Shown here: positions 1,770 through 19,539 of the stretch, piece by piece
Layout of the letters: each line of letters starts with the position of its first letter
How positions within the stretch are numbered: the stretch's first letter is position 1
Assembly (NCBI RefSeq): GCF_900055185.1
Contig: NZ_FIZX01000002.1
Coordinates: 228,586-252,585, forward strand
Length of the DNA: 24,000 nt
Reading direction: 5' to 3'
DNA from: Grimontia celer
GTDB lineage: Bacteria; Pseudomonadota; Gammaproteobacteria; Enterobacterales; Vibrionaceae
The notes under the pieces: generated by a model
Databases searched by the model: none
What the model saw: only the letters and a program-made list of their open reading frames with translations
Told to the model about the DNA's origin: nothing
Made by a program: the position numbers and the translations under genes

Positions 1770-4700
1770 TTAACCTGCAGACTTTCTATTGCTGGCTGCG
1801 TCTTTCTCGTAGGGATTTCTGATGCCGGCCTTAGAAGAGGAAATGACGCGCCCAAGCGGGATAGGTTCTCCGTACACATAGCCTTGGGTGTAATCAAGGC
1901 CCACTTCGCGCACATGGCGAAGGTCTTCCTCGCTGTTGACCTTGTGCGCGGAAGTTTTAACTTTCAGTGTATCCGCCACCTGTTTGATGGATTCAACAAT
2001 GCGTTTATCGACCTTGCTCGACTTCATCATTGAGATAATGCTGCCATCGATTTTGATTAGGCTGATATTGAATTTGCGCAAGTAACCAAACGAGGAGAGT
2101 TCTGAGCCAAAGTTGTCGACGGCGACTTCGCATCCGAGTTTACGCAGTGATGAAACGATGTCTTGAGAGCGAATGGTGTCGATAAGCAAAGTACTCTCTT
2201 TGACTTCGATACAAATCTGGCTGGCAGGCAGCACACTGTCTTTGATTAAACCGAGACAGTAACTCATGAAGCTCTCACTGTAGAAAGCGCCGGTTGAAAT
2301 ATTGACGGCAATACCCAATCCAGTTTCTGCGAGGGCATTTGCCTGTTCTACAAGCACTTCGTTAAACACCCAGCGCTCAATGCTGATCAGGCGACCTGTC
2401 GGCTCAGCAGCAGGGAGAAACTCGGCGGGAAGCAGTAAATCCCCTTCTTCAGTGATCAGTCTGACGAGCACTTCATGCCAGGTAGGAAGCTCCTGGCTAT
2501 TGGGTACCAATGGCATGCTAAGTAGACTGAAAGAATTCGTGGATATGGCAGTATCAATCCGCTGCAACAGGAAGTCGCGACGGAATGAAATGCCATCATT
2601 CAGCAATGAAGGGTCGAATACTGAAATGGCCGGCTTGCAGCTTTCAGTTAATGATTCAAGAGCAACCTGTGCTTGGTAAATCAGCTGGAACGGCGTGCTT
2701 TGCAGTGCCTCGGCAGCCGTTAAGCCAATTGAGCAATCCAACGGGTAAGACGTTTCGCCATGTTGGTATTTTAATGAGCAGATTTTCTCTGAAAGCTTGT
2801 TAAGAGAATGCTGGGCGTTTTCGATTGATTCGTTAGGCAGTAAGACGCCAAACTGCTTGTCACTGAGTCTGGCAGCGTTCTGTTTTCCAAAAGACTTGAT
2901 GATTAAACCAGCTGATTTAACAAGTTGATCCCTGATTTGGTTACCAAAGGCATCGGCCAGCGCTTCGAGTCCGCCGATTTCCACGACTGCCAGTGTATGT
3001 CTGTCTAAGGATTCCTCGAGACTGTCGATATGACCTTGCAGCTTGTGTTCAAAAGCGCGTCGGTTCGGAAGTTTGGTGAGCATATCTAAAGCCGACTTTT
3101 CCTCTTTTCCTGCAATACGCTCTTCCATAGAGACTGTGTGAAGATGGAAGGTGAGCACCCATCCGTTCGGTGCATTTCCATCTGGGATAACCGGAATCAC
3201 CTCTAAATAAACCAGTTGTTCCTGATGTTGCTCAGTTTGCAAGGTGAAGGTACCGTTCAGGCGGAAGTCCTGATGGTATGCAGAGAGTAGGTGAGCAAAG
3301 GTGTATTGATTTTGGCGGTCAAAAATATTGAACTGCTCATCAATGCTAGCGCCGATTAAATCATTGTTCGACAGGCCAGTGAAAGCTGCGGCATGGCGGT
3401 TGATAAAGGTGATTCTGAGCAGGGAATCAAGCGCGATTATACCATCACTGACGGATTCGGCAGCGGTTGCGAGCAGCAAGTTCTCCCTTTCGAGTTGCAC
3501 GTTTTCGCGGTGGATCGTAGTGGTCTCCTGACAGAGCCCGACCAACCGTGAACCGCTGTCTGGGTGTATTACGCGGGCGAGAATATGGTGGTATACCACC
3601 TGACCATTGGCATTTCTCACCTGAATGTTGATGTCGAGCTGCTCGTCGTGCATCCTTGCCACAGTGAACATGGCCTCAAGTTGGTGTTGGTCTGAAGGCA
3701 AGACTTTATCGCGCCACAGGGATCTAGATATACCGTCACTTTCCTGAAGGCCATACAAGGCGTACATCTCGGTATTCCAGTAAATCTCTTCTGTTTCTGG
3801 GTTGTACTCCCAAAGGCCGAAATCGCATACCTGGCCGACAAGTTCAGCTTGCTTGGCAGCGAGTGCTTCTTGCAGCGAAAGCTCGCGTTCATCATCAATA
3901 TCCGTGATGGTACCAATCACTTTGGTGGTTACGCCATGGCTGTCATGTTCGATAGGTTGGCAATGATCCCTCACCCAACGATAGCGCTCATTGTCATCCA
4001 GTAACCGATATTCAATGGCACCAAACTGGCCGCCATTGTATGTCACTGTGTGTTGGTATTCTCTGAGATCATCCGGGTGAATGCGGGACATCCACTCGTA
4101 CAGTCGTTTGACGTCACTGGCTTTGATGCCAATGGCTTGGCTGGCGTTTTCTGAAAGGTGCAGATACTTCGTGTGGCACTCCATTTCATAGACTGCGGTA
4201 CGGTTGATTCCAAGGGCAAATTCGAATTTCTTCGACCACATTTTCCGCTCATCATCGAAGCGACGATCTTTGTCGATATCCTGAACCTGATAGATAAACT
4301 GCAGGGTATTTCCTGTCCATTTGTCCCTGATGATGGAGACACCAATACGTGTCCAAACCACCTGTTTGTTTTTGCGCGTGAGGCGAACTTCAGTTTGAAA
4401 ATTATTGATTTTGCCTGAAGAGAGTAATTGAAGCTGCTCATTGGCTGCATCTTTATCGCGATGGAACACAAGCTGTCGGAAGGTTTTCTTTTCCAGCTCT
4501 TTTGCGGTGTAACCAATCAGGTCGATGAAGCTTTTGTTGGCATTACTCATTGTCCCGTCGGGCTGGACCATGACCGTTCCTATCACTGATGACTGCATGG
4601 CATTTGAAAACAAATCTGCCCGTTCATCACTCGTTTTCTGGATTTGAAGCAGGCGCGCCGACTTCACGGCGAGGATTGCCCCAAGCAACATGGCACCACT

Positions 4701-5537
4701 GATTGGGAGCAAAAGCCCAGTCGTACTGACGGGTTCAGTTGATATCACTAGGTTCTCTTCTGGGTTTACTAACAATAAATCCAGGGTCACCGAGACCACA
4801 AAGGCGGTGAAAAAAGCTGATAGCCTGTCCAATATGGCGCCCGCCACGGTCAGTGCGATGGCAATGGCAATAAAGGGGAAAGTAGCATGGGTAAGCAACC
4901 ATCCGCATAGCGCAGCGATGACAAATATCGTCATGACGGTAGTTGGGCGACAGAGGCTCGATGGCAATTCACGGTTGCTTTGCAGCAAGGTGTAAACCAG
5001 AGGTGTGATAGCCAAGATACCGATCACATCACCAAGGTACCAAGCAGGGGCAACGGCTTCGAAGGGGATGGACAATTCTCGGTTCAGCACCCAGCCGCCG
5101 AGGACGGCGCCAGCGAGGGGGCTAAGCAAGACAGTTAGCAGCACAAAGGAGGTAAAAGCCTTCATCGACAGGAAAGGTTCAGCGTATCGGGCGATATAGG
5201 CCAGTGACAGACTGCCAAGAATAATGGTGGAAGAGTTCGCGGCTGCGAGTTGAATGCTCTGAAGTGGGTCATCGCCGAAGATAATGTTGGAGAGTAATAT
5301 AGCGACGAAGGCCGTGCCAACAAGTGCTAATCGTTGGCTGGAAGGCGCCAGCGCTATCATGGCGATACTGAAGCCGTTGGTGTACCAGATAAAGGCTGCG
5401 CTGTTAGGCTGGCGGAGAAAGTAGATGGAATACAGCGACTCAATCAGACAACCCAGAAACAAAAGCATGATGCGTATTAATACCGCATTCTCGGGGAATA
5501 CGTCGCTGGACTGATTGGTCGCTGCCGTTGGGGTCAT
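1770..5537 (-). CDS. Membrane sensor protein: MASE1 - four PAS/PAC - GGDEF-like - EAL-like (both catalytic motifs degenerate)
   Basis: 1255-aa ORF. The first ~300 aa are multi-TM, consistent with MASE1. Four PAS/PAC-like repeats follow (e.g. ...GNTLQFIYQVQDIDKDRR, ...VIGTITDIDDERE). The GGDEF-family fold is marked by LTKLPNRRAFEHKL, but RLSDKQF (2850-2870) sits where RxGGDEF is expected. The EAL fold carries HEVLVRL (2457-2477), VNIS, IEVKES, VDNFGSE, IKIDGS and QGYVYGEP, but AHKVN (1935-1949) replaces AEGVE. Confidence 0.88.
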   Translation of the reverse strand: MTPTAATNQSSDVFPENAVLIRIMLLFLGCLIESLYSIYFLRQPNSAAFIWYTNGFSIAMIALAPSSQRLALVGTAFVAILLSNIIFGDDPLQSIQLAAANSSTIILGSLSLAYIARYAEPFLSMKAFTSFVLLTVLLSPLAGAVLGGWVLNRELSIPFEAVAPAWYLGDVIGILAITPLVYTLLQSNRELPSSLCRPTTVMTIFVIAALCGWLLTHATFPFIAIAIALTVAGAILDRLSAFFTAFVVSVTLDLLLVNPEENLVISTEPVSTTGLLLPISGAMLLGAILAVKSARLLQIQKTSDERADLFSNAMQSSVIGTVMVQPDGTMSNANKSFIDLIGYTAKELEKKTFRQLVFHRDKDAANEQLQLLSSGKINNFQTEVRLTRKNKQVVWTRIGVSIIRDKWTGNTLQFIYQVQDIDKDRRFDDERKMWSKKFEFALGINRTAVYEMECHTKYLHLSENASQAIGIKASDVKRLYEWMSRIHPDDLREYQHTVTYNGGQFGAIEYRLLDDNERYRWVRDHCQPIEHDSHGVTTKVIGTITDIDDERELSLQEALAAKQAELVGQVCDFGLWEYNPETEEIYWNTEMYALYGLQESDGISRSLWRDKVLPSDQHQLEAMFTVARMHDEQLDINIQVRNANGQVVYHHILARVIHPDSGSRLVGLCQETTTIHRENVQLERENLLLATAAESVSDGIIALDSLLRITFINRHAAAFTGLSNNDLIGASIDEQFNIFDRQNQYTFAHLLSAYHQDFRLNGTFTLQTEQHQEQLVYLEVIPVIPDGNAPNGWVLTFHLHTVSMEERIAGKEEKSALDMLTKLPNRRAFEHKLQGHIDSLEESLDRHTLAVVEIGGLEALADAFGNQIRDQLVKSAGLIIKSFGKQNAARLSDKQFGVLLPNESIENAQHSLNKLSEKICSLKYQHGETSYPLDCSIGLTAAEALQSTPFQLIYQAQVALESLTESCKPAISVFDPSLLNDGISFRRDFLLQRIDTAISTNSFSLLSMPLVPNSQELPTWHEVLVRLITEEGDLLLPAEFLPAAEPTGRLISIERWVFNEVLVEQANALAETGLGIAVNISTGAFYSESFMSYCLGLIKDSVLPASQICIEVKESTLLIDTIRSQDIVSSLRKLGCEVAVDNFGSELSSFGYLRKFNISLIKIDGSIISMMKSSKVDKRIVESIKQVADTLKVKTSAHKVNSEEDLRHVREVGLDYTQGYVYGEPIPLGRVISSSKAGIRNPYEKDAASNRKSAG

Positions 5538-6080: not shown

Positions 6081-6308
6081 GAGGGGCGTTGTCCTTGAGA
6101 TAATCTGGGGTGACGAAGTTATAAGATGCTAGTGTGTCATGGATTGAAGCACGGGAAAACTGATGTTTCGTATTGCCGCGCTAGTCACTAAATCACCTCT
6201 TCACCTGTCCTATTTTTGTGAAAAATAAGAATTTCTTTTCCAACTGAAAGCAAATGCCCGCCAATCCTGTCTATTCTGTAACTAGAACCATGGAGCTAGG
6301 CGCCTACC

Positions 6309-6887
6309 TTGAACGATATCACCGCAACATTGTTGACCTATTCCCCAGTGACCCTCTTTTTCGCGGTGATCCTGTTGTCTTATCTGCTCGAAGATTTAGC
6401 GATTGTGACCGCCAGCGTTGCTGCGTCGCAAGGGGTTATGTCAGTACCTGCAGCGTTGGCAGCCATCTTTGTGGGTATTGCGACAGGCGATATTGGCCTT
6501 TACGCACTGGGTTTATGGGCACGTCGCTGGAGAAAACTGCGCGGATTTTTGCTGACCAAACCGAGCGTGAGAATGATACGCCGGAAATTGCGCGCCCATG
6601 CGTTTGGCAATTTGTTCCTTATTCGCTTTGTGCCAGGTCTTAGGTTTGTCGGTTTTTGCCTGAGCGGTTTCTTCCGTGTCGGGCTAAAACCCTTTTTATC
6701 GGCCGTGCTGGTTGCAACTGCACTCTGGACGGCTCTGATTTTCGTGCTGGTTTACAAACTGGGCGAAATTGAATGGATTAATAACCACCTCAGCTGGGGA
6801 CTTATCCCTGTTGTGGTGATCTTGCTCATTGCCGTCAACCGTGTTGCAGGGAGCAAGCTGAAGGAGAAAGCCGTTTGCACAGATTAA
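6309..6887 (+). CDS. DedA / VTT (SNARE-associated) family inner-membrane protein
   Basis: 192-aa polytopic hydrophobic ORF with the DedA signature F-x-x-R-F-x-P-G-x-R (NLFLIRFVPGLRFVG). An in-frame stop at 6297-6299 makes TTG 6309 the first possible start. The true start could be a downstream TTG or GTG (6330-6366). Confidence 0.75.
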   Translation: MNDITATLLTYSPVTLFFAVILLSYLLEDLAIVTASVAASQGVMSVPAALAAIFVGIATGDIGLYALGLWARRWRKLRGFLLTKPSVRMIRRKLRAHAFGNLFLIRFVPGLRFVGFCLSGFFRVGLKPFLSAVLVATALWTALIFVLVYKLGEIEWINNHLSWGLIPVVVILLIAVNRVAGSKLKEKAVCTD

Positions 6888-8011
6888 AGCTGGTGGAAGA
6901 GAAAACCTCTCCTGCCTTGCCGGTTAACCATGGCATGCCGCCTTTAGACATGAGCGGCAAACCGGTGTCGTTTTTTGAATTCTGGCCGGGTTGGGTGTTT
7001 TACGCCCCGGTGGCCTTGCAATGGATATGGAACGGGCTGAAGTACAGAAGCTTTGGATTGCCATTGGTGGCAAACCCCGGCATTGAATTGAGTGGCATGG
7101 TGGGCGAATCCAAAGACGCTATTTTGTCACTGGCTGGTGACACAGCGAAGCCTTGGGTATTGCCTTACATCATGTGGGAAAAAACCGCGATGCCGCCAGA
7201 AACACAGGCGCATCAGGCACTGACTGCCTTGCAACAGGCAGGGCTCGGCTTTCCCGTGGTTGCCAAGCCGGATCTGGGCTGTCGTGGTGCGGGTGTGCGT
7301 TTGGTCGAGAACAAAGGCGAGCTGGAAGAATACCTGCGCCTGTTCCCAGATGGTGCCCGATTGATGTTGCAGGAAAAAGCGCCTTACAACGCCGAAGCAG
7401 GTGTGTTCTACGTGCGTTATCCCGATCAGAAAAGAGGTCAGATTTTCTCCATGACCCTGAAATACAACCCTTTCGTGGTGGGCGATGGAGAGAGCAATCT
7501 CGCCCAATTGATTGATGAGGATTCCCGTGCCGGAAAACTCGCACATTTATACCGAACACGCCATGAGGACAAATTGGATCTGGTATTGGCGAAAGGGGAA
7601 ACGTTCCGCCTTGCTTTTGCCGGCAGTCATTCGCGCGGTGCGATTTTCCGCGATGGACGTGACTATATCAGCGATGCGTTAGTCGAGCGCTTGGATGAAA
7701 TTTTTGATGACTTTCCCGGTTTTCACTATGGACGGATCGATCTCAAGTTCCGGGACATCAACAGCCTGATGCGAGGCGAAGATTTTGTATTGCTGGAAGT
7801 CAATGGCGCCAGCAGCGAAGCCGCGCATATCTGGGATCGCGGTGCGACCATCAAGAGTGCATTCGGCACCTTGCTGGATCAATACCGGATGCTGTTTGAG
7901 ATTGGCAATTTGCAGCGAAAGGCCGGGCACAAAGTCCCGTCGTTGTTGGAGCTTTACCGGGCATGGCGTCGTGAAAAGGCGTTGGTTCGTGATTATCCGT
8001 CCACCGATTAA
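6875..8011 (+). CDS. ATP-grasp family carboxylate-amine ligase (D-Ala-D-Ala-ligase-like fold), substrate unknown
   Basis: 378-aa ORF. ATP-grasp hallmarks are VVAKPDLGCRGAGVRLV (Lys plus Gly-rich loop), MLQEKA, and the Mg-binding E-x-N in FVLLEVNGASSE. The TTG start at 6875 has AAGGAG (6861-6866) 8 nt upstream and overlaps the upstream gene by 13 nt. An alternative ATG (MPPLD...) lies 60 nt downstream. Confidence 0.85.
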   Translation: MHRLKLVEEKTSPALPVNHGMPPLDMSGKPVSFFEFWPGWVFYAPVALQWIWNGLKYRSFGLPLVANPGIELSGMVGESKDAILSLAGDTAKPWVLPYIMWEKTAMPPETQAHQALTALQQAGLGFPVVAKPDLGCRGAGVRLVENKGELEEYLRLFPDGARLMLQEKAPYNAEAGVFYVRYPDQKRGQIFSMTLKYNPFVVGDGESNLAQLIDEDSRAGKLAHLYRTRHEDKLDLVLAKGETFRLAFAGSHSRGAIFRDGRDYISDALVERLDEIFDDFPGFHYGRIDLKFRDINSLMRGEDFVLLEVNGASSEAAHIWDRGATIKSAFGTLLDQYRMLFEIGNLQRKAGHKVPSLLELYRAWRREKALVRDYPSTD

Positions 8012-8055
8012 AACAACTAGCAATCGAGAAAAATCAGTCGATTTGAGGGGATACC

Positions 8056-8595
8056 ATGTTAGCGAGAGACACCAGGCCATCACTGAATGAACCCACTGCT
8101 GTTGAGGTAGAAGGGTGTCTGGATGTGGCGGCGCAGGCGCTTGAGCTTTTACACCAGCTTTCTGACGAGCAGTACAACTTTGTCGCAGCACCGTATTTGC
8201 AAAGTTCAATCGGTCAGCACATGCGCCATATTCTTGATGTGGTCCATGCTGCTTCCGCGCAGGAAATTGATTATGACGTTCGCCGCCGTGCGCACCCTGT
8301 TGAAACCGATAAAGAGATTGCGATTTCGGAATGGCGACACCTTTGCGAATGGTTGGAAAGCCTTTGTGAAGCAGATATGGATGCCGCGATTGATGTACGT
8401 CATGAGGTCAGTCTGAACCGTCAGGCTGCGGCAAAATCAGCGTCTACACTTGGCCGCGAACTAGCATTTGTCTCCAGCCATGCGGTGCATCATTTTGCGC
8501 TAATCCGTGTCAGCTTAAGTGCACAGAATATCAGTGTGGCAGAGACCTTTGGTCTTGCACCTGCCACTCTCAGTCATTTCCGTGGAGAAAAGTGA
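8056..8595 (+). CDS. DinB/YfiT-like four-helix-bundle metalloprotein (DinB_2-like)
   Basis: 179-aa ORF. His residues are arranged like the DinB-superfamily metal triad: GQHMRHILDVV near the N-terminus and SSHAVHHFALI (H-x3-H) near the C-terminus. GAGGGG lies 5 nt upstream of the ATG. Confidence 0.6.
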   Translation: MLARDTRPSLNEPTAVEVEGCLDVAAQALELLHQLSDEQYNFVAAPYLQSSIGQHMRHILDVVHAASAQEIDYDVRRRAHPVETDKEIAISEWRHLCEWLESLCEADMDAAIDVRHEVSLNRQAAAKSASTLGRELAFVSSHAVHHFALIRVSLSAQNISVAETFGLAPATLSHFRGEK

Positions 8596-9351
8596 ATGTG
8601 TACTGTCAGCTGGTTGCTGAACGATACCGGATACGACGTTTTCTTTAACCGTGATGAGCAAAAGGGTCGTGCGATTGCGCGTCCACCCCAACGTTTTCAG
8701 GACAAAGGCACTGCGTTTCTGATGCCCGTGGATCCTGATGGTGGCGGCACCTGGATTGCGACCAACCAACACGGACTCTCGCTTTGTCTGCTGAACTACT
8801 ATCAGGGAGATATCCCTGAGTTGCCTCTCATTAGCCGCGGGTTGCTGGTAAAAATGCTGGCGTCCTCATCATCTGTGGCAGAAGTGGTTAATACGCTCAA
8901 TGAGCTCCATATGGGCTCCTACGCGCCTTTCACCTTGTTGGTATTTGCGCCCGATTTAAACGCGCACCACGGCCATGTAATTGCTTTCCAATGGGATGGT
9001 CACGTGTTGACGCAGCGACCGAGTGTTGAACCAATGATCTCCTCGTCTGTGGCATTTCAGGAAGTGATGATTGCAAGGCGCGAGGCTTTCAAAAATATCA
9101 TGACAGAACCGCAGACGGTCGAGAAAGCCTGGGCGTTTCACAAGAGCCACGTCCCTGAAGCTGGGTACAAATCCGTCTGTATGCACCGTGACGACGCCAA
9201 CACAGTGAGCTTTACTCACCTGAGCGCGACGCCAGGTGCAATGGAAATGGTTTATGTCGATGGACCGCCATGCCGAAACGGCCCAGCGGTGACAGAAACT
9301 TTAGTTCGCAAGGTACCTAACATGCGTTTGGTGGCCAGCGAAAAAAGGTGA
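8596..9351 (+). CDS. NRDE / TANGO2-like protein (predicted N-terminal-Cys Ntn-hydrolase-like fold)
   Basis: 251-aa ORF beginning MCTVSW...VFFNRDE, i.e. Cys2 plus the eponymous NRDE motif. The ATG directly abuts the upstream TGA (8593-8595). GGAGA lies 7 nt upstream. Confidence 0.85.
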   Translation: MCTVSWLLNDTGYDVFFNRDEQKGRAIARPPQRFQDKGTAFLMPVDPDGGGTWIATNQHGLSLCLLNYYQGDIPELPLISRGLLVKMLASSSSVAEVVNTLNELHMGSYAPFTLLVFAPDLNAHHGHVIAFQWDGHVLTQRPSVEPMISSSVAFQEVMIARREAFKNIMTEPQTVEKAWAFHKSHVPEAGYKSVCMHRDDANTVSFTHLSATPGAMEMVYVDGPPCRNGPAVTETLVRKVPNMRLVASEKR

Positions 9352-9418: not shown

Positions 9419-9844
9419 ATGTCTCGCGTACTGTTACTGCTAACTTTGTTGTTCTCACCACTGACCTTCGCCGCCGATATTTATACTGGCTTTTTCAGCA
9501 GCAAAGCGGTGAGCGGTTATGACACTGTGTCTTTCTTCGATGGCACACCAGTCAAAGGTAAATCAGATTTCAAAACTGAATATCAGGGTGCTGACTGGTT
9601 GTTCTCAAGCCAGGAAAACCTCGATAAGTTTCTCGCAGACCCAGAGAAATATGCACCGCAATACGGTGGCTACTGTGCGTGGGCAATTGCTGAGAAAGAT
9701 GATCTGGCACCGGGCGATCCTGAGTTCTGGACGATCGTCGATAACAAGCTGTACCTGAACTACGACGATTCAGTGCAGAAAGCATGGGAAAAAGATATCC
9801 CGGGCTTTATCGACCTTGGCGACAAGAATTGGTCTAAGCGCTAA
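9419..9844 (+). CDS. Periplasmic YHS-domain protein
   Basis: 141-aa ORF with signal peptide MSRVLLLLTLLFSPLTFA/AD. Family pattern: AVSGYDTVSFF...KG...W.F.S.EN...F..DPEKYAPQYGGYCAWA...KLYLNY. A strong AAGGAG sits upstream. Confidence 0.85.
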   Translation: MSRVLLLLTLLFSPLTFAADIYTGFFSSKAVSGYDTVSFFDGTPVKGKSDFKTEYQGADWLFSSQENLDKFLADPEKYAPQYGGYCAWAIAEKDDLAPGDPEFWTIVDNKLYLNYDDSVQKAWEKDIPGFIDLGDKNWSKR

Positions 9845-9878: not shown

Positions 9879-11621
9879 ATGATCAGTCCCTTTCAGATCC
9901 CGAGAAAAACGCCGTTTGGTGTGATTGAAAAAGCACTGGAGTCCGTGACAGGCCTTCGGGCCTTGGATAAGCACTACCGTCGTCGTCCGGAAGGGATAGA
10001 CACCGATCATTTTCTCTCCTATACCTTGGATGTGCTCGGCATTGACTACACCGTCTCTGCCGAGGACATGAACAATATCCCGACTACTGGCAGCACAGTC
10101 GTCGTGGCCAATCACCCGCTTGGCGGTGTGGAAGGCGTTATCCTTGCCAAGTTGCTTCGTCAGGTGCGCCCTGATGTGAAAGTGCTGGCAAATTACTATC
10201 TCAAACGTATTCCTGAACTCAGCGACATCTTTATCGGTGTGGATGTGTTTGAAGGGGAGAGTGCGCGTAAGGCGAACCTAAGGGCGTTACGCGAAGCACA
10301 TCAGCATGTCAGCGATGGTGGATTGCTGTTGATTTTCCCTGCTGGTGAAGTCTCGACGTTTGACGAAGATGGACAGCTAAAAGATAAAGCATGGAGCCGC
10401 TCAGTTGCTGCTTTGGTGAAAAAGCACAAGGCGACAGCGTTACCGATTTATATTGGCGGTCAGAACAGCCGTAAATTCTATCGCGCGGGGCGCATCCATC
10501 CGCTGCTCCGCACCGCGATGCTGGCACGTGAACTTCTCAATAAACGGGGCGATTCCATCCCACTTTCCATTGGTGAACCTATTGCATGGAAAGAGTGTCG
10601 GTCATTTGATAGCGACGACGCCTTGGTGAATTATCTCAGGCTCAATACTTACCTGCTCAACCGTGAGCAAGCGGTGACTGCCGTTGAGTTGGAACAGGCA
10701 GGCGAACCCATCATTGCGCCGCAGCCTGTCGATGCCATAGAGCAGGAACTGACGACATTGTCAGCGGAAGCAAAGCTTCTGTCGTCCAATGAGTTTGATG
10801 TCTACTGCACGGAAAGCGCGCATATTCCGGTGATCCTTCAGGAAATCGGCAGAATGCGCGAAGTGAATTTCCGTGCTGTTGGTGAAGGCACTGGCATGGC
10901 CTGTGATATCGACGAATACGATGATTACTACTTGCATTTGTTTATCTGGGACAGGGAAGCACGACAAATGGTTGGTGCTTACCGTTTGGGTAAAGTGCAG
11001 GAAATCGTGGCAGAGAAAGGGTTGGATGGGCTCTATTCCCGCAGCCTCTTTCAATACGACGGCCGCTTTGTCGAAAGCATGGGCAACTCGCTGGAAATGG
11101 GCCGTTCGGTGATTGATGAAAAGTACCAGCGAAGCCTGTCAGCCCTGCTGCTGCTCTGGAAAGGGATTGCTGCTTACGTGAGCAAACATCCAGATATCAC
11201 CACCTTGTTTGGCCCTGTCAGCATCAGCAACGACTACCCGCTGACTGCGCGTCGTCTTCTGGCTGAGAGCCTGAGTGTGCACCACTATGACGAGAACATT
11301 GCTCAGCTGGTGGAACCGACTACACCGCTGGAAACGTCTTCGCCTGTGCCTTGGCATACTTCAATGCTTGCAGGACTTGGCGATTTGCAGTTGTTGTCGC
11401 GAGTGATCAGCCGCATGAGCCAGGGCTTGGGCGTACCTGTGCTACTGAGGCAATACCTTGGCTTAAATGGCAAACTGGTGTGCTTTAACGTGGATCCAGC
11501 GTTCAACAATGCCTTGGATGGCTTGATTATGGTGGACTTGCGGAATGTGCCTGTGAAGACGCTCGGCAGATACATGGGCAAAGAACAAGCAGAAACGTAT
11601 CTCGACTATCACCAGTCATAA
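9879..11621 (+). CDS. olsF: Bifunctional acyltransferase: N-terminal PlsC-like O-acyltransferase plus C-terminal OlsB/GNAT-like N-acyltransferase (OlsF-like aminolipid synthase)
   Basis: 580-aa ORF. The N-terminal domain has VVANHPLGGVEG (H-x5-E variant of the acyltransferase H(X)4D box) and IFPAGEVS. The C-terminal half has REVNFRAVGEGTG...DEYDDYYLHLFIWD, typical of the hemolysin-like/OlsB N-acyltransferase family. Domain order and length match OlsF as described in Serratia and Vibrio. The symbol is tentative. Confidence 0.7.
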   Translation: MISPFQIPRKTPFGVIEKALESVTGLRALDKHYRRRPEGIDTDHFLSYTLDVLGIDYTVSAEDMNNIPTTGSTVVVANHPLGGVEGVILAKLLRQVRPDVKVLANYYLKRIPELSDIFIGVDVFEGESARKANLRALREAHQHVSDGGLLLIFPAGEVSTFDEDGQLKDKAWSRSVAALVKKHKATALPIYIGGQNSRKFYRAGRIHPLLRTAMLARELLNKRGDSIPLSIGEPIAWKECRSFDSDDALVNYLRLNTYLLNREQAVTAVELEQAGEPIIAPQPVDAIEQELTTLSAEAKLLSSNEFDVYCTESAHIPVILQEIGRMREVNFRAVGEGTGMACDIDEYDDYYLHLFIWDREARQMVGAYRLGKVQEIVAEKGLDGLYSRSLFQYDGRFVESMGNSLEMGRSVIDEKYQRSLSALLLLWKGIAAYVSKHPDITTLFGPVSISNDYPLTARRLLAESLSVHHYDENIAQLVEPTTPLETSSPVPWHTSMLAGLGDLQLLSRVISRMSQGLGVPVLLRQYLGLNGKLVCFNVDPAFNNALDGLIMVDLRNVPVKTLGRYMGKEQAETYLDYHQS

Positions 11622-11639: not shown

Positions 11640-11668
11640 AAAAAAGCGCCGGAACCCGGCGCTTTTTT
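11640..11668. terminator. Bidirectional rho-independent terminator between olsF-like gene and OM barrel gene
   Basis: Perfect 8-bp GC-rich stem agcgccgg (11645-11652) / ccggcgct (11656-11663), loop aac. It is flanked by A6 (11640-11645) and T6 (11663-11668), so both convergent transcripts see a U-tract. Confidence 0.9.
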
Positions 11669-11682
11669 GGTGTTCATAACAT

Positions 11683-13199: not shown

Positions 13200-13958
13200 T
13201 CAAAACAGAGAAGAGAAAGACTGACGTTCCTGAATTTTTGTAAGAACGCGGCTAAGGGAATCCTGCAAATAACCATGGACATAATTACCCATACTGATCC
13301 GATTGACGCCTAATTGTTCAAGCGTGCCGAAATCTGGCAGGGTGGGTGTACACATGATATTCAGCGGAATCGCGATGACATTGGCAATGGCTTTGATATC
13401 TTCTGGCTTTGAGAGAAACGGCACGAACAGGCCATTGGCTCCTGCATCTGCATATCGCTGCGCTCGTCCAATCGTTTCTTCCTTCGCGTTATCTAAACCA
13501 AGCAAAAACGTATCGGTACGGACATTGATAAACACTTCATTTCGCTGACTGCCCAATAGCTTGATGATGTCTCTCAGTTTCTGCTGGAAGTCATCTGCGT
13601 TTTCAAGAACTCTTTCGCCTGCATGCATTTTACTGTCTTCGATGTTAATACCTTTGACGCCCATCTCGATGAGCGCGCGAATATTCGCGGCAATTTGATC
13701 TGCGCTTTCCCCATAGCCAGATTCAATATCCACATTCAGCGGCAAGGTAGAACAGGCAAGGATCCGCCTGACGATGAACAAGAGCTCATCGAATGTCATG
13801 GCTTCGCCATCTTCATAACCCAGAGAATGCGCAATGGCAGCGCTGGAGGTGCCAATGGTTCTGTAGCCCAGTGACTCAGCAATTTTAGCGCTGTTTGCAT
13901 CCCAGACATTTCCCAGCAAATACATTGGTTCGCTGGTGGATAACTGATAAAAATCCAT
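13200..13958 (-). CDS. Isocitrate lyase / PEP mutase superfamily enzyme (methylisocitrate-lyase-like)
   Basis: 252-aa ORF with characteristic motifs: GNVWDANSAKIAESLGY..IGTSSAAIA, LPLNVDIESGYGE, GINIEDS. Confidence 0.85.
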   Translation of the reverse strand: MDFYQLSTSEPMYLLGNVWDANSAKIAESLGYRTIGTSSAAIAHSLGYEDGEAMTFDELLFIVRRILACSTLPLNVDIESGYGESADQIAANIRALIEMGVKGINIEDSKMHAGERVLENADDFQQKLRDIIKLLGSQRNEVFINVRTDTFLLGLDNAKEETIGRAQRYADAGANGLFVPFLSKPEDIKAIANVIAIPLNIMCTPTLPDFGTLEQLGVNRISMGNYVHGYLQDSLSRVLTKIQERQSFSSLF

Positions 13959-14891: not shown

Positions 14892-16520
14892 CTACCCACG
14901 GCCCTCTTTACTCAGTATCGCACGGATATGTGCAATCAATTCATTCACCCGAAGTGGCTTCAACAAGAAGCCTTGAAGCTGTTGGCTTTCCCCGATTTTG
15001 TCGTCGAAATCATTGAGTCCTGTGTAGAGCACAACCGGCAGGCCTGGACTATGTTTGCGGGCCTCGTTGATGACCTGAAGCCCAGTTAGTTGAGGCATGG
15101 CCTGATCGGTCACCAGAATGTGGTACTTATCTGGCTCTCTTCCTATTTCCCAAAGCGCCTCAAGTGGGTCGCTGAAAGTATCTACCCGAAGACCAAAAAT
15201 GGGCAGGGTGGCTTTCACCACTTCAAGCATGACCTCTTCGTCATCAATAAAGACCACATTGGGCTGATCCTGATTCTCCTCGAGAGGGATACCTGAAGAG
15301 GGAAGGCTCTCAGGCCTTATCATATTGTCTTCGGAGCGTTTGCTGTATAGCGGAAGGTATATGTTGAACTCTGTACCTTCATTAATGCGTGTTTTGACGC
15401 TGATGCCACCTTGGTAGCGGCTGATGATACCGTGCACAATCGCCAGACCCATCCCGGTTCCTTCGCCGTGGGCGCGGGTGGTGAAAAACGGCTCGTAGAT
15501 GTGTTCCAACACCTTATCGACGATGCCCACGCCGTTGTCTTTTATGGTCACTTTCGCAAACATGCCGGGTTGCGCCAGCCACTCAGATTCAATGTCTTGA
15601 GCGGTGAGCTCGACGGCTGAAACATCAAAAGTAATCTGGCCTTCGCGATCTTTGCAGGCGTGATCAGCGTTAATGAGCAGGTTAGTAAGCAATTGGTGAA
15701 TGTGGGTGCTGTCAGCGTGGATGACAAGAATATCTTCCGGCAGGGTCAGTGTGAGGGATGATGTAAATTGTTTGCTCATCTTCAACGCGTGGGCCACTTC
15801 CTCGCAGATGCGGTTGAGATCAAGCTCGATCCTGTCTTCATCCTGCTTACGACTGAATGTGAGGATCTGTTTCACCAATAATCGCCCGCGTTCCAGCACT
15901 TCCTCAAGCTTCTCTAAATGTTCCCCAACGCGACCGTAAGAGGGCGTACTTTCGAGTTTTAGGGTAATGAGATCCGCAAGCCCAAACGCGATACCAAGCA
16001 AGTTGTTGAACTCATGGGCAATCCCTCCGGCAAACGCTCCCAGCGCTTCCATTTTTTTTGCCTGCATCAGTTGTGCTGCAAGCTGGTGGTTCAACTCTTC
16101 ACTGTGTTTCTGGCGGGTGATGTCTTTGTCTATGCCGACCATGCGCAATGCCACACCGTTTTCGTCTCTTTCAACGACTTTGCCGCGATCGAGATTCCAA
16201 CGGTACTGGCCGTTCTTCATACGAAGGCGATTTTCATGTTCATGGATCTCGACTTCGCCGTTGATGTGCGCACGTAGCGCCTTCCAGGTGGACTCCACAT
16301 CATCAGGGTGCAGCATAGATTGCCACTGCTCGATAGAAGAGGAGACCTCCTGGTTTTCATAACCCAGCGTTTTGTACCAACTGCCGGTCAGGTAAAGCTT
16401 GTTCTCAGTGATTTGCCAGTCGTAAATACCGTCTGAGGCAATGTTGATGGCATGCTTGAGCCGCTCATTCTCTGCTTCAAGTTCCGCAATACGTTTTCGC
16501 AGCTCATCGCTCTCAGACAT
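14892..16520 (-). CDS. Soluble hybrid sensor histidine kinase (coiled coil - PAS - HisKA - HATPase - REC)
   Basis: 542-aa ORF with no TM segment. Motifs in order: leucine-zipper-like ELRKRIAELEAENERLK; PAS/PAC (...WQSMLHPDD...NGQYRW...VGIDKDITRQK); H-box GGIAHEFNNLLG; N-box LLTNLLINADHA; G-boxes DNGVGI and GTGMGLAIV. The C-terminal receiver has FIDDEE, LVTDQAMPQLTG and LLKPL. Confidence 0.9.
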   Translation of the reverse strand: MSESDELRKRIAELEAENERLKHAINIASDGIYDWQITENKLYLTGSWYKTLGYENQEVSSSIEQWQSMLHPDDVESTWKALRAHINGEVEIHEHENRLRMKNGQYRWNLDRGKVVERDENGVALRMVGIDKDITRQKHSEELNHQLAAQLMQAKKMEALGAFAGGIAHEFNNLLGIAFGLADLITLKLESTPSYGRVGEHLEKLEEVLERGRLLVKQILTFSRKQDEDRIELDLNRICEEVAHALKMSKQFTSSLTLTLPEDILVIHADSTHIHQLLTNLLINADHACKDREGQITFDVSAVELTAQDIESEWLAQPGMFAKVTIKDNGVGIVDKVLEHIYEPFFTTRAHGEGTGMGLAIVHGIISRYQGGISVKTRINEGTEFNIYLPLYSKRSEDNMIRPESLPSSGIPLEENQDQPNVVFIDDEEVMLEVVKATLPIFGLRVDTFSDPLEALWEIGREPDKYHILVTDQAMPQLTGLQVINEARKHSPGLPVVLYTGLNDFDDKIGESQQLQGFLLKPLRVNELIAHIRAILSKEGRG

Positions 16521-16848
16521 TATGAGTATTTACATCACTGTAGAAAAAGCTGATGTTGGTGACCTTCTGGTTGACGCCGCGGTGAAGGGAAGCGATAGGC
16601 TCTTCATCGGCGGAGACCACGTCCCAGCAACGGTTCGCCTGTTCGTCATCTTCAAAGAACATGGCCACGAGTCCCTCTTGGTCTGGCGGGGCGAGGTTGT
16701 ATCCAGGGTGGGGACGACGGGAGAAGGACTGCCATCCAATGTTGAGTCCCATGTCGTACAGTTGTTTGGCATAAGCAGTAAATGCTTGTTCAAATTCGCT
16801 CTGGTCCTGTTCAGGTTTGAGCTCATACAATCCGTGCATTGAGATCAA
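16513..16848 (-). CDS. Small acidic cytoplasmic protein of unknown function, translationally coupled to the kinase
   Basis: 111-aa ORF (TTG start, AAGGAAG 5 nt upstream; alternative ATG at 16839). Its stop overlaps the kinase start as ATGTCTGA (8-nt overlap, 16513-16520). It is the only frame here with protein-like composition. Confidence 0.65.
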   Translation of the reverse strand: MISMHGLYELKPEQDQSEFEQAFTAYAKQLYDMGLNIGWQSFSRRPHPGYNLAPPDQEGLVAMFFEDDEQANRCWDVVSADEEPIASLHRGVNQKVTNISFFYSDVNTHNV

Positions 16849-16863
16849 AACAGCTTCCTTATT

Positions 16864-18039: not shown

Positions 18040-18234
18040 AGTCCCAATCCTTGACCAGCGTTTAAGGTATCCATTGTTTGAGGAAATGCTGAGGGCAGCA
18101 TGCGCGGTGGCAATAAACCTAGGTGCTAATATTGGGATTGTCTATGTTACTGGCGGGCTAAGTTCAGAAGGAATGCATCTGGATCTGATGCATTCCTGAA
18201 AGAGAGACGTAGTCTTTTTTATGAGTCGGCATTT

Positions 18235-18687
18235 TTAGGCAGAATTAACAATTTCATCGGGAAAGCGATATCTTTGGACGTTCGGTCTGCTTCTTACCAA
18301 TCTATAAAGTGTTCTCAGGAATTCTTTGTCTTCTTCGTCGTTGTCCCAGAAGAAATGCCCACCCGCTCTGACGGCACCCCAAATCATATTGGCGCGGAGG
18401 TTATCGACACCGTTCTGGCGCAACAACTCATATAGCATGTCGTCAGCCTGCTCTTGGTCTACCTGATGATTGTAGAAGAGCCAGTCATGCACCAGTGCTG
18501 GCATCATGATGTCAGGATGAAACGGTGTGAAGGTAATTTGCCAAGCCACGGCAGGAATGCTGGCACCGTCATAACGGAAATATTTAGGAACAACAATATC
18601 AACGCCTTGTACTTGGATCTCAAAGTCCCAGGTGAGTTCGTATTTATTGGTTAATGCGCTGGGTTGCAGTTTGGGTTGTTTGAGCAT
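18235..18687 (-). CDS. DUF1353 domain protein
   Basis: 150-aa ORF with the family pattern ...FRYDGASIP......ALVHDWLFY. GGAGG lies 7 nt upstream of the ATG. Confidence 0.75.
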   Translation of the reverse strand: MLKQPKLQPSALTNKYELTWDFEIQVQGVDIVVPKYFRYDGASIPAVAWQITFTPFHPDIMMPALVHDWLFYNHQVDQEQADDMLYELLRQNGVDNLRANMIWGAVRAGGHFFWDNDEEDKEFLRTLYRLVRSRPNVQRYRFPDEIVNSA

Positions 18688-18764
18688 GAGAGGCCTCCAA
18701 ATTGCTTCTGGAGGGTATAGGCTAACTAATACACTATTGTGATGACGTTTAAAGATTGGGAAAA

Positions 18765-18821
18765 ACAGAAAAGAAAAAGGACAGGCAATATGGAGTCAGC
18801 TCAACTGAGCATTGCCTGTCC
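18765..18821 (-). terminator. Probable rho-independent terminator (- strand) downstream of the orphan lipoprotein gene
   Basis: Perfect 11-bp stem ggacaggcaat (18779-18789) / attgcctgtcc (18811-18821) with a 21-nt loop that contains a 4-bp sub-stem (tcag/ctga). On the - strand it is followed by TTTTTCTTTTCTGTTTTT (complement of 18761-18778). Confidence 0.55.
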
Positions 18822-18873
18822 AAAATGCAAATAATTGCATTGAAATAATTTACACCAACTACAAGGAACTTCC

Positions 18874-19448: not shown

Positions 19449-19539
19449 GGGATATCTCCCATTTTGTTAGTGAGTGTAAACACCCTGCTTAATCACATTG
19501 TTATTATTATTTGGCTCGATAAAAGGAGCCATTCCCCTA

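Follow-up and report, generated by a model that had tools for sequence, protein, structure and literature searches.

Organization of the locus

Within a 24,000-nt stretch of Grimontia celer DNA (the window), we found a run of same-strand genes that opens with a DedA-family membrane protein and closes with an OlsF-like aminolipid synthase (Table 1). An earlier note on this DNA had described the first four genes as an operon with no assignable pathway, and the coordinates, junctions, Shine-Dalgarno sites, and catalytic motifs it reported for them were all recovered. Specifically, the stop codon of the DedA gene (TAA, 6885-6887) lies inside the ATP-grasp gene, creating a 13-nt overlap, and a Shine-Dalgarno sequence (AAGGAG, 6861-6866) is located 8 nt 5' of the ATP-grasp TTG at 6875. 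The 44-nt gap between the ATP-grasp and DinB-like genes (8012-8055) holds the sequence GAGGGG (8045-8050), and the DinB-like TGA (8593-8595) directly adjoins the NRDE ATG (8596).

The four-gene extent of the operon did not hold up. The unit runs on via a YHS gene (67 nt downstream of the NRDE gene) to the OlsF-type synthase (34 nt farther on). The terminator read from the sequence after olsF is the sole clear intrinsic one, and nothing comparable to its hairpin occurs between 6309 and 11621. This terminator, which is probably bidirectional, closes a six-gene unit (dedA - ATP-grasp - dinB-like - NRDE - YHS - olsF). Because the operon continues to an OlsF-type synthase, the description "no assignable pathway" misses a decisive clue; it also overlooked the literature on VCA0646-0649 of Vibrio cholerae. 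Upstream of the operon, alignment of nine regions revealed three conserved blocks: AGTGTGTCAYGG (6131-6142), CCTGTCCTATTTTTGTGAA (6204-6222), and CCTGTCTATTCTGTAA (6267-6282). The motif was not repeated elsewhere in the window above chance, and the region had no Rfam match.

Table 1. Genes and regulatory features of the locus, in window positions
Feature	Position	Strand	Details
Upstream regulatory region	6131-6282	+	blocks common to Grimontia and Enterovibrio (alignment)
DedA/VTT-family polytopic membrane protein	6309-6887	+	192 aa, TTG start
ATP-grasp amide ligase, uncharacterised family	6875-8011	+	378 aa, TTG start
DinB_2-superfamily protein	8056-8595	+	179 aa
NRDE/TANGO2-family Cys-Ntn-fold protein	8596-9351	+	251 aa
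Secreted YHS-domain (seleno)protein-family protein	9419-9844	+	141 aa
OlsF-like bifunctional aminolipid synthase (O-acyltransferase and N-acyltransferase)	9879-11621	+	580 aa
Intrinsic terminator	11646-11670	+	GCGCCGG-AAC-CCGGCGC then TTTTTTGG

The encoded proteins

The domain assignments and motif calls made earlier for the first four proteins (DedA/VTT, ATP-grasp, DinB-like, and NRDE) stood when examined with Pfam, AlphaFold, Foldseek, and alignments. The DedA protein, which contains hydrophobic segments, matched Pfam VTT_dom with 35.3 bits (gathering threshold, 33.9), and its TTG start is kept in nine of nine relatives. It has the VTT domain, typical motifs, and polytopic topology of DedA-family lipid transporters (UptA, PetA, and YqjA; VMP1/TMEM41B). 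It is coupled here to an ATP-grasp catalytic domain, and our literature search found no published DedA domain coupled or fused to such a domain. Orthology to UptA was ruled out (17.7 bits against a cut-off of 250).

The ATP-grasp protein belongs to a family of 2680 representative clusters. Its Pfam ATP-grasp score (18.4 bits) falls under the gathering threshold of 27, but the fold is backed by an AlphaFold model (pLDDT 89.6) and by Foldseek. Family alignments revealed invariant K131, P132, G135, C136, R137, G138, and G140 (loop, G135-V141), together with E308 and N310. The top Foldseek matches were the ATP-grasp domain of GshF, the G-domain of cyanophycin synthetase, and Ddl (E, 1e-9 to 1e-7; TM, 0.3 to 0.5, with TMq up to 0.50; identity, 12 to 20%). 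The cyanophycin synthetase G-domain, the GshF C-terminal domain, and Ddl have the fold and catalytic residues in common with the window protein and activate an amino-acid or peptide carboxylate as an acyl phosphate; the closest structural relatives, GshF and the cyanophycin synthetase G-domain, join an amine to a peptide-like carboxylate. The window protein differs from all three in having a unique N-terminal region, conserved and marked by an FEFWP motif, and in its coupling or fusion to DedA. The earlier note had named RimK, Ddl, cyanophycin synthetase, and glutathione synthetase as possible full-length orthologues. NCBIfam scores of 18 to 29 bits against cut-offs of 143 to 877, in agreement with Foldseek, reject all of these. 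The annotation "D-Ala-D-Ala ligase" is wrong, and the protein is not orthologous to any characterised ligase.

The DinB-like protein matched Pfam DinB_2 with 31.7 bits (gathering threshold, 24.8), and its histidines H55, H58, H142, H145, and H146 are invariant among 21 sequences. For the NRDE protein (Pfam TANGO2, 39.6 bits against a threshold of 22.6; pLDDT 92.9), M1, C2, and N18-R19-D20-E21 are invariant across the family alignment. Foldseek matched it to TANGO2, acyl-CoA:isopenicillin N acyltransferase, bile-salt hydrolases, and acid ceramidase, a fold found in enzymes that cut or transfer acyl-amide bonds. The alpha-beta-beta-alpha fold, Met-Cys N-terminus, and NRDE motif recur in TANGO2 and in C45 IAT, bile-salt hydrolase, NAAA, and acid ceramidase, and some members of these families bind acyl-CoA or cleave or transfer lipid amides. 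TANGO2 itself uses the NRDE motif to bind acyl-CoA, and superposition places its Cys2 over catalytic cysteines (PMC11867700, PMC12359130). In contrast to TANGO2, to which it is 13 to 15% identical, the window protein is an operon partner of a membrane ligase, to which a family member is fused in P0380. The YHS protein has a signal-like N-terminal segment and matched NCBIfam NF041384 with 156 bits (cut-off, 70). Meanwhile, the OlsF-like protein contains Acyltransf_2 and Acetyltransf_5 domains (Pfam) and scored 435 bits with NF052615, under the cut-off of 620.

Conservation, fusions, and genomic neighbors

The DedA-ATP-grasp-DinB-NRDE set is kept in 77 of 80 related genomes. Since each protein is conserved there at 36 to 96% amino-acid identity and in unchanged order, the four open reading frames are real genes rather than chance. 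OlsF is next door in 70 of the 80, sometimes with altered gene order, and most related clusters include the YHS gene. The linkage is not confined to close relatives, a concern raised at the outset: it extends from Vibrionaceae, Marinomonas (DedA-ATPg-OlsF-DinB-NRDE, where ATPg denotes the ATP-grasp gene), and Psychromonadaceae (DedA-ATPg-YHS-DoxX-OlsF-DinB-NRDE in a MAG) to Burkholderiales and Pseudomonadales, and the fusions described below reinforce it. In the last two orders, olsB or olsBA takes the place of OlsF beside DedA-ATP-grasp. Divergent olsB or olsBA adjoins the DedA-ATPg operon in Burkholderiales JOSHI_001, a Ramlibacter MAG, a Pseudomonadales MAG, and locus L173. The ATPg-OlsF pair occurs alone on three gammaproteobacterial contigs, with an 8-nt overlap in L066, and OlsB/OlsF-like genes were found in several arrangements at 11 of 80 metagenomic loci, many of which are short. 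Across three classes of proteobacteria, olsF, olsB, or olsBA is thus adjacent in six or more distinct arrangements. The unit is genomically coupled to the aminolipid N-acyltransferases OlsF or OlsB/OlsBA.

Coupling of the ATP-grasp ligase to the DedA membrane domain is physical: it is translational here and takes the form of a DedA::ATPg fusion in 83 of the 150 best family representatives. Single cases of a DinB::ATPg fusion (P0314) and an NRDE::alpha/beta-hydrolase::DedA::ATPg fusion (P0380) were also found, and alpha/beta-hydrolase-DedA-ATPg operons and fusions exist in other lineages. It is exceedingly improbable that the four genes are mere neighbors with unrelated functions. Their order is kept, they overlap or abut, fusions involve all four proteins, and regulation is shared among the V. 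cholerae orthologues. Synteny and the fusions effectively refute that reading. Synteny, fusions, and the lack of a characterised ATP-grasp orthologue bear out the earlier proposal of a single functional unit, and the four proteins constitute one evolutionary and functional unit.

Other loci depart from this pattern. No adjacent olsF was present in five Vibrio and Marinomonas genomes, and roughly 45 of the metagenomic loci with a DedA::ATPg fusion lack an aminolipid gene in their vicinity. In Moritella and Amphritea, DinB-NRDE-YHS(-DoxX) is tied to two different ATP-grasp genes without OlsF or DedA. Recurrent redox and sulfur neighbors included MsrA, a DoxX-NDH2 fusion, YeeE, and a CoA-disulfide reductase-rhodanese, and one cluster has the lipid A deacylase PagL close by. 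The neighborhoods contained no recurring glycan or peptidoglycan genes, and the cluster no conserved cysteine or thiol biosynthesis genes.

A possible role in aminolipid head-group tailoring

The locus has a syntenic orthologue in V. cholerae, VCA0646-VCA0651, with the same DedA-ATPg-DinB-NRDE-YHS-OlsF content, although its proteins are only 44 to 63% identical to those of the window (58% for OlsF). Primer mapping assigned VCA0646 to OlsF, VCA0647 to YHS, VCA0648 to NRDE, VCA0649 to DinB, VCA0650 to ATP-grasp, and VCA0651 to DedA. The genes published as a "vca0646-0649 operon of unknown function" correspond to DinB-NRDE-YHS-OlsF, with ATP-grasp and DedA outside the published four-gene unit; we found no description of the module studied here in the literature searched. 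VCA0646-0649 is co-activated by HapR. In a delta-iurV mutant, VCA0650-1, VCA0648-9, and VCA0646-7 were together among only 21 down-regulated genes, falling with msrB, trxC, a glutaredoxin, and copA (PMC7600106).

The four proteins very probably act together at the membrane. We tentatively propose that they form a DedA-coupled amidoligase system that may tailor or turn over aminolipid head groups. This proposal is favored by the ols linkage, which survives rearrangement and the replacement of OlsF by a non-fused pathway, by the fusions, by the GshF/cyanophycin-like structure of the ligase, by the acyl-amide fold of NRDE, and by the co-regulation in V. cholerae (delta-iurV and HapR). Among the products considered in the earlier note, the evidence favors a lipid-linked molecule that is synthesized or recycled at the membrane.

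Known aminolipid pathways offer further precedent. Cerilipin of Gluconobacter cerinus carries an ATP-dependent amide on the ornithine alpha-carboxylate, the reaction type expected of an ATP-grasp enzyme beside an ornithine-lipid synthase, although no taurine-ornithine lipid has been reported from Vibrionaceae. This taurine transfer to the ornithine carboxyl requires ATP and has no assigned gene (PMC12971839); an aminolipid review likewise names no enzyme for dipeptide and tripeptide head groups. In planctomycetes, OlsH/OlsI, an ATP-dependent amide-forming ligase and an alpha/beta-hydrolase encoded in one aminolipid operon and found via genomic context, already makes ornithine lipid. However, OlsH is an adenylate-forming GH3 enzyme rather than an ATP-grasp, has no DedA, DinB, or NRDE partner, and with OlsI replaces OlsB/OlsF, whereas the window ATP-grasp accompanies OlsF. 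By analogy, the ATP-grasp with an alpha/beta-hydrolase or NRDE could be an alternative synthase that joins fatty acid and amino acid with ATP, yielding a second aminolipid or salvaging free fatty acids. The OlsI-like O-acyltransferase role of an alpha/beta-hydrolase, the alpha/beta-hydrolase-DedA-ATPg operons and fusions, and the stand-alone fusions without olsB or olsF fit this idea. We nonetheless consider it very unlikely: ATP-grasp enzymes are not known to activate fatty-acid carboxylates, the closest structural relatives use amino-acid or peptide carboxylates, and a complete OlsF is already encoded in the window.

Several observations argue against the head-group proposal. VCA0646 (OlsF2), which is induced at low salt and raises polymyxin tolerance, makes ornithine lipid on its own in Escherichia coli (PMC12186959). 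Low-salt V. cholerae labeled with [14C]ornithine yielded ornithine lipid and origin material only, with no additional spot reported. Furthermore, DinB and NRDE were dispensable for cell death induced by overexpression, the sole phenotype tested. The genomes without olsF, the fusion loci without aminolipid genes, and the Moritella and Amphritea clusters point the same way, and the redox and sulfur neighbors are left unaccounted for.

The substrate of the ligase could instead be some other carboxylate or amine anchored in the membrane, with lipid A/Kdo, PE/PS, and an undecaprenyl-linked glycan or peptidoglycan precursor as candidates. In that case, the ligase gene and olsF/olsB would be neighbors because they belong to one envelope-stress regulon, not because their products have a substrate in common. 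The DedA fusion fixes only the site of action, at the membrane, and undecaprenyl phosphate or PE is the cargo of characterised DedA proteins, although the UptA model match is far under its cut-off. Some ATP-grasp enzymes amidate the carboxylates of sugars and others attach D-Asp to precursors of peptidoglycan, and both the many fusion loci without aminolipid genes and the nearby PagL are compatible with such a substrate. Against this stand the variety of ols arrangements, the minimal overlapping ATPg-OlsF pair, and the absence of recurring glycan or peptidoglycan genes, and we regard it as rather unlikely.

Somewhat less likely still is a soluble peptide-like or thiol compound that is made, conjugated, or recycled in an oxidative, sulfur, or metal stress response, with the ATP-grasp as ligase, DinB as thiol transferase, NRDE as conjugate amidase, DedA as exporter, and OlsF as a co-regulated neighbor. 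Enzymes with a DinB fold typically depend on a thiol and a metal, the YHS protein is a member of a (seleno)protein family, and DoxX is fused to an NDH2-like flavoprotein. The fall of the V. cholerae cluster with redox and copper genes in the delta-iurV mutant and the OlsF-free clusters with two ATP-grasps also fit, but the thiol handling suggested in the earlier note draws only circumstantial support, via the redox and sulfur neighbors. Fusion of the ligase to DedA, and in places to an alpha/beta-hydrolase, points to a lipid rather than a soluble substrate, co-regulation by itself would not explain so persistent a link to OlsF/OlsB, and conserved thiol biosynthesis genes are missing from the cluster.

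If aminolipid head groups are the substrate, the six-gene operon would encode an amidoligase system associated with the membrane and acting on, or side by side with, ornithine-lipid-type acyloxyacyl aminolipids. At the cytoplasmic leaflet, OlsF would synthesize the aminolipid. The ATP-grasp would phosphorylate a carboxylate, most likely the alpha-carboxylate that is free on the N-acylated amino acid of the head group, and then join an amine to it, extending or amidating the head group in a manner comparable to taurine-ornithine or serine-glycine lipids. DedA may flip or present the lipid substrate or product, while the secreted YHS protein (with DoxX where present) would work on the periplasmic side. 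NRDE, whose Cys-Ntn fold is that of acyl-amide hydrolases and transferases, and the DinB metalloenzyme with its His triad may tailor, proofread, or reverse the modification, a place that an alpha/beta-hydrolase could fill in other lineages.

Layout and surroundings of the six-gene unit

The earlier note had described a four-gene operon at 6309-9351 with no assignable pathway. The four genes stood as a unit, each at the position it had been given, but the unit runs on through two further genes for a YHS-domain protein and an OlsF-type aminolipid synthase. All six genes are co-directional, with junctions of -13, 44, 0, 67, and 34 nt, the last two being the gaps 5' of YHS and olsF. The details of the first three junctions were likewise recovered. 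Specifically, AAGGAG (6861-6866) lies 8 nt 5' of the TTG start of the ATP-grasp gene at 6875, the DedA stop codon at 6885-6887 produces the 13-nt overlap, GAGGGG (8045-8050) sits inside the 44-nt spacer before the DinB-like gene, and TGAATG (8593-8598) places the DinB stop directly against the NRDE start. The sole clear intrinsic terminator follows olsF, and none comparable to it was found inside the unit.

Features of the six-gene unit in the window
Feature	Position	Strand or place	Assignment or basis
DedA	6309-6887	+	VTT_dom
ATP-grasp	6875-8011	+	ATP-grasp fold
DinB-like	8056-8595	+	DinB_2
NRDE	8596-9351	+	TANGO2
YHS-domain protein, secreted	9419-9844	+	NF041384 156 bits, signal-like N-terminus
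OlsF-type bifunctional aminolipid synthase, 580 aa	9879-11621	+	Acyltransf_2 + Acetyltransf_5
Intrinsic terminator GCGCCGG-AAC-CCGGCGC-TTTTTTGG	11646-11670	directly 3' of olsF	read from sequence

The TTG start of dedA is kept in all nine aligned Grimontia and Enterovibrio sequences; an ATG ORF of 129 aa in another frame (6254-6643), which overlaps this start, is probably spurious. In the 228-nt leader of dedA (6131-6282), three or four blocks are common to Grimontia and Enterovibrio, and about 60 nt separate two related CCTGTC-TATT-TGT elements. Rfam gave no match in the leader to a known RNA or riboswitch, and a sigma-70 promoter scan gave none 5' of dedA. PhoB control, as for the other V. 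cholerae olsF, was considered and set aside, with no convincing Pho box seen by eye upstream of dedA. Among close relatives, the leader of G. sedimenti carries an insert of about 260 nt (locus L002, 8946-9446), and the NRDE-YHS spacer of G. indica is 335 nt (locus L001, 12472-12808) versus 67 nt in the window. Both indels are small and fall at regulatory junctions of the predicted operon.

Upstream of dedA, a MazG-like gene and the gene for a large PAS-GGDEF-EAL protein are divergent from the cluster. The latter protein, of 1,255 aa, is one of several related to c-di-GMP signaling, in which the window is rich (1770-5537, 14892-18039, and 19863-21935); others are a hybrid histidine kinase and a response-regulator-EAL protein, and a GGDEF-EAL protein gene adjoins a solute-binding protein gene. 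A PEP-mutase/isocitrate-lyase-family gene (13200-13958; PF13714, 230 bits) is shared with G. indica at 76% identity. G. sedimenti, G. marina, G. hollisae, and Enterovibrio lack it at this position, and it is therefore read as a strain-variable insertion. The stretch at 18000-20000 has a low GC content (0.40 to 0.44, versus about 0.49 elsewhere in the window), contains two 150-aa ORFs (18235-18687, with a DUF1353 match, and 18996-19448), and may have been horizontally acquired.

Families of the encoded proteins

The ATP-grasp protein scores under the Pfam threshold; its fold is nonetheless confident from a predicted model (pLDDT 89.6), for which Foldseek returned 336 PDB matches at E ≤ 1e-3. 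The protein has the ATP-binding lysine, glycine-rich loop, and Mg-binding E-x-N of the superfamily. These catalytic motifs, which had been read as intact from the sequence, do not vary across family alignments (K131/P132, the G135-V141 loop, and E308-x-N310). The best structural matches were the C-terminal ligase domain of GshF, the G-domains of cyanophycin synthetase, and Ddl (E of 1e-9 to 1e-7, TMq up to 0.50, identity 12 to 20%), and the best PDB sequence match was CphA2 (E = 5e-5). A check for full-length orthology to Ddl, RimK, or CphA found none at cut-off. Every NCBIfam match fell far short of its cut-off; the RimK-, cyanophycin synthetase-, and glutathione synthetase-like models gave 28.7 bits against 850 for cya_phycin_syn, 21.6 against 877 for PRK14016, and 18.4 against 143.4 for rimK_fam. 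Many homologs carry the name D-alanine--D-alanine ligase in their sources. No Ddl model was among the NCBIfam matches, and comparison with Ddl itself gave PDB profile E values of at least 0.004 over 36 to 75 residues and Foldseek TMq of 0.32 to 0.41 at 12 to 18% identity. This label is not justified, since the structural likeness is at the level of the fold only and none of the models for Ddl, RimK, or CphA reached its cut-off. The protein represents a new family within the clade that activates amino-acid or peptide carboxylates.

DedA passes the Pfam gathering threshold for the VTT domain (35.3 versus 33.9 bits) and is polytopic by hydropathy, with several hydrophobic segments; the ATP-grasp, DinB-like, and NRDE proteins are soluble. 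Identity of DedA with the undecaprenyl-phosphate transporter UptA was rejected (17.7 bits against an equivalog cut-off of 250). The DinB-like protein is a divergent member of DinB_2 (31.7 versus 24.8 bits), and its predicted metal-binding histidine triad (H55/H58 ... H142-x3-H146) was invariant in 21 sequences. As a candidate thiol S-transferase of the bacillithiol/mycothiol type, it had no NCBIfam match and no PDB sequence match. The OlsF-like protein combines an N-terminal Acyltransf_2 domain (PF19576) with a C-terminal OlsB-like GNAT domain (PF13444); its score for NF052615 (435.3 bits) is below the equivalog cut-off of 620, and an ornithine head group in Grimontia is thus putative, although the syntenic V. 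cholerae VCA0646 makes ornithine lipid. An anti-phage role was raised as a possibility in a V. cholerae preprint (10.1101/2024.09.23.614608), and none of the six proteins had a PADLOC match.

The NRDE protein belongs to the TANGO2 family (39.6 versus 22.6 bits; model pLDDT 92.9), and the M1-C2 terminus and N18-R19-D20-E21 motif noted earlier are invariant in its family alignment. Its best Foldseek matches were the TANGO2 structures 9bwa and 8sv7 (human TANGO2), followed by acyl-CoA:isopenicillin N acyltransferase, CV2077, bile-salt hydrolases, penicillin V acylases, and acid ceramidase. Each of these is a Cys-Ntn enzyme, and the bond acted on is an acyl amide. TANGO2 uses the NRDE motif to bind acyl-CoA (PMC11867700), and on superposition its Cys2 coincides with the catalytic cysteines of the matched Cys-Ntn enzymes (PMC12359130).

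Fusions, gene order, and genomic context

A library-wide search with the ATP-grasp protein yielded 2,680 representative clusters at 50% identity (E ≤ 1e-3), 1,023 of them at E ≤ 1e-30. In 83 of the best 150 representatives, DedA/VTT is fused directly upstream of ATP-grasp; the fused representatives are metagenomic proteins. Several carry an additional N-terminal alpha/beta-hydrolase (P0303, P0335, and P0370), and one of 1,121 aa (P0380) reads NRDE, alpha/beta-hydrolase, DedA, ATP-grasp. Another, of 543 aa (P0314), joins ATP-grasp to a DinB domain with the same subfamily motifs as in the window. Taken together, these fusions mean that DedA, DinB, and NRDE are each covalently joined to the ligase somewhere. 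ATGA overlaps between the DedA and ATP-grasp genes occur in other loci; such loci, like the window with its 13-nt overlap, have the DedA::ligase enzyme in unfused form. The N-terminal hydrophobic helix of the ATP-grasp protein (residues 39 to 57) was considered as a transmembrane anchor and rejected (maximum 19-residue Kyte-Doolittle mean, 0.98); its place right after DedA in the fusions makes a membrane-proximal linker more likely. With the ligase covalently fused to DedA in many relatives, we consider a pathway for a soluble peptide or thiol compound unlikely.

The ATP-grasp protein is 96% identical to its counterpart in G. indica, and a genome scan with its alignment found relatives in at least 576 species-level genomes. 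We kept the best 80 loci and determined their cluster content by tblastn with the window's proteins. DedA, ATP-grasp, DinB, and NRDE genes occurred together on one strand in 77 of these 80 loci; OlsF was adjacent in 70, YHS was present in most, and 30 had one more gene, for a DoxX-like membrane protein, between YHS and OlsF. Conservation of the flanking genes does not reach beyond Grimontia and Enterovibrio, and the conserved entity is the cluster, not its neighborhood. Gene order varies: three Marinomonas genomes have DedA-ATP-grasp-OlsF-DinB-NRDE, and a Psychromonadaceae MAG has DedA-ATP-grasp-YHS-DoxX-OlsF-DinB-NRDE. The ATP-grasp-OlsF pair stands alone on three contigs, namely two from Gammaproteobacteria MAGs and a third (L086) with similar flanking genes; in L066 the two genes overlap by 8 nt. 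An adjacent olsF is truly absent in five Vibrio and Marinomonas genomes. The linkage of DedA, ATP-grasp, OlsF, DinB, and NRDE outlasts rearrangement, and we regard chance adjacency as extremely improbable. At the level of comparative genomics, these patterns show DedA, ATP-grasp, DinB, and NRDE to be one functional unit, with a ligase that works attached to a DedA membrane domain.

Several variants were also observed. In Moritella and Amphritea (L083, 7468-11525; L085, 3297-8879), a locus of the form YHS-(DoxX)-ATP-grasp A-ATP-grasp B-(448-aa membrane protein)-DinB-NRDE has neither OlsF nor DedA, and its two ATP-grasps are other, unrelated proteins. Apparent frameshifts split olsF in two V. 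cholerae assemblies (L081/L082, 9201-10935; 48 + 534 aa) and in V. mimicus CAIM 602 (L058, 13304-15104; 132 + 505 aa). They lie at differing 5' positions and reflect strain-specific pseudogenization or assembly error.

Relatives of the ATP-grasp protein also occur in Burkholderiales, Pseudomonadales, and Sphingorhabdus. In the Burkholderiales locus JOSHI_001, an olsB-like gene adjoins, and is divergent from, a run of alpha/beta-hydrolase-DedA-ATP-grasp-DinB-YHS-DoxX-YeeE. In a Pseudomonadales MAG, olsB-olsA is divergent from alpha/beta-hydrolase-DedA-ATP-grasp-DoxX, with YHS beside it, and in a Ramlibacter MAG and locus L173 an olsB-like gene is divergent from an alpha/beta-hydrolase-DedA-ATP-grasp operon. 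Locus L088 has DoxX, the DedA::ATP-grasp fusion, alpha/beta-hydrolase, and YHS. A metagenome scan that started from the fused proteins gave 80 loci, of which many are short. Adjacent OlsB/OlsF-like genes were present in 11 of the 80, in several orientations, along with DinB (8), NRDE (8), DoxX (7), and alpha/beta-hydrolases (12). The roughly 45 loci nearest the lead sequence are stand-alone DedA::ATP-grasp fusions with variable neighbors. By reading of the sequence, a diacylglycerol/lipid kinase-like gene lies directly 3' of the stand-alone fusion in six loci (L101, L107, and four others), which would be another association with lipid metabolism. From these contexts, the aminolipid link of the family is strong and recurrent and persists when OlsB/OlsBA replaces OlsF, but it is not universal. 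Gene context shows the unit to be coupled to aminolipid N-acyltransferase genes.

The secreted YHS "(seleno)protein" and, in many genomes, the DoxX-like membrane protein accompany the cluster (window 9419-9844; loci L081, L087, L090, and L172). DoxX is fused to an NDH2-like flavoprotein in one contig, and MsrA, YeeE, and a CoA-disulfide reductase-rhodanese recur nearby.

Vibrio cholerae orthologs and a proposed role in aminolipid tailoring

V. cholerae has the same six-gene cluster, with OlsF as VCA0646, YHS as VCA0647, NRDE as VCA0648, DinB as VCA0649, ATP-grasp as VCA0650, and DedA as VCA0651. We mapped the tags by placing published primers on V. cholerae and V. mimicus loci and from the annotation of VCA0650-1 as "D-alanine-D-alanine ligase, hypothetical protein." A DoxX gene was absent from this locus in the V. 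cholerae sequence examined. Expressed in E. coli, VCA0646 produces ornithine lipid; the gene is also required for this lipid to form at low salt and contributes to polymyxin tolerance (PMC12186959). The cluster is co-regulated in V. cholerae but also has a low-salt promoter of its own around NRDE and YHS. Promoter activity of a fragment 5' of VCA0649 was low under every condition (PMC12186959), as read-through from a dedA promoter would predict. HapR activates vca0646-0649, described as "four genes of unknown function," and overexpression of VCA0646 with VCA0647 causes cell death, for which VCA0648 and VCA0649 are dispensable (10.1101/2024.09.23.614608). The YHS gene is thus the one required with OlsF for this phenotype. 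Only 21 genes are down-regulated in a delta-iurV mutant, and VCA0650-1, VCA0648-9, and VCA0646-7 all belong to them (PMC7600106).

We tentatively favor aminolipid tailoring as the function of the unit, at a confidence short of probable. The ATP-grasp enzyme would form an amide on the aminolipid head group, for which the free alpha-carboxylate of the N-acylated amino acid is the chemically obvious site; this carboxylate is an analog of the peptide C-terminus used by the nearest structural relatives. DedA would present or flip the lipid, and NRDE (or an alpha/beta-hydrolase elsewhere) and DinB would tailor, edit, or reverse the product. The proposal is attractive because ATP-dependent transfer of taurine to the ornithine carboxyl is described and its gene unknown (PMC12971839), and because OlsH/OlsI, an ATP-dependent ligase with an alpha/beta-hydrolase, is an established aminolipid pathway that was found through gene context.

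Other observations count against aminolipid tailoring. OlsF alone suffices for ornithine lipid, and labeling of V. cholerae gave only ornithine lipid and origin material (PMC12186959). That the unit is instead an alternative aminolipid synthase we judge improbable, the window already encoding a complete OlsF. Many family members have no adjacent aminolipid gene, and OlsF is missing from the Moritella/Amphritea variant. Action on another membrane-anchored substrate would accommodate the former cases and the DedA fusions, while leaving the recurrent OlsF and OlsB neighbors aside, and is somewhat unlikely. Nor does aminolipid tailoring account for the recurrent redox and sulfur neighbors (MsrA, the DoxX-NDH2 fusion, YeeE, and CoA-disulfide reductase-rhodanese); these and YHS/DoxX suggest a periplasmic or membrane redox function outside the main explanation.

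The superfamilies of the parts were already known, and the downstream olsF ortholog has been characterized in V. cholerae. The literature searched contained no description of the DedA-coupled ATP-grasp/DinB/NRDE module, of its fusions, or of its link to aminolipid synthases, and nothing linking OlsF, DedA, NRDE, or DinB to an ATP-grasp; a search for YHS with DoxX likewise did not return this module. The module is real and conserved, and its chemistry is what we infer. There is a realistic chance that it will reveal a new enzyme class. A more specific proposal, which we put forward as doubtful, is that the DedA-coupled ATP-grasp would perform non-ribosomal, lipid-templated peptide ligation at the membrane, extending a lipid-anchored amino acid by residues joined to its free carboxylate. 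DedA would then be the first flippase or substrate channel dedicated to aminolipids, and bacterial TANGO2/NRDE would hydrolyze or transacylate lipid amides and so edit or reverse the modification.

The family concerned is large (2,680 clusters at 50% identity) and often mislabeled D-Ala-D-Ala ligase by NCBI. If aminolipid tailoring is correct, several questions would become testable. One is the gene for ATP-dependent head-group amidation of ornithine lipids, an activity reportedly known biochemically since the 1970s, with the gene still unknown. Others are the origin of dipeptide and tripeptide aminolipid head groups, the role of a DedA protein coupled to a catalytic domain, and the biochemistry of TANGO2-family proteins, whose human member is a disease gene of disputed function. 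In V. cholerae, the quorum-sensing "cell-death operon" vca0646-0649 and low-salt ornithine-lipid formation with polymyxin tolerance would then belong to one six-gene membrane-remodeling locus, the first two genes of which have so far been ignored.
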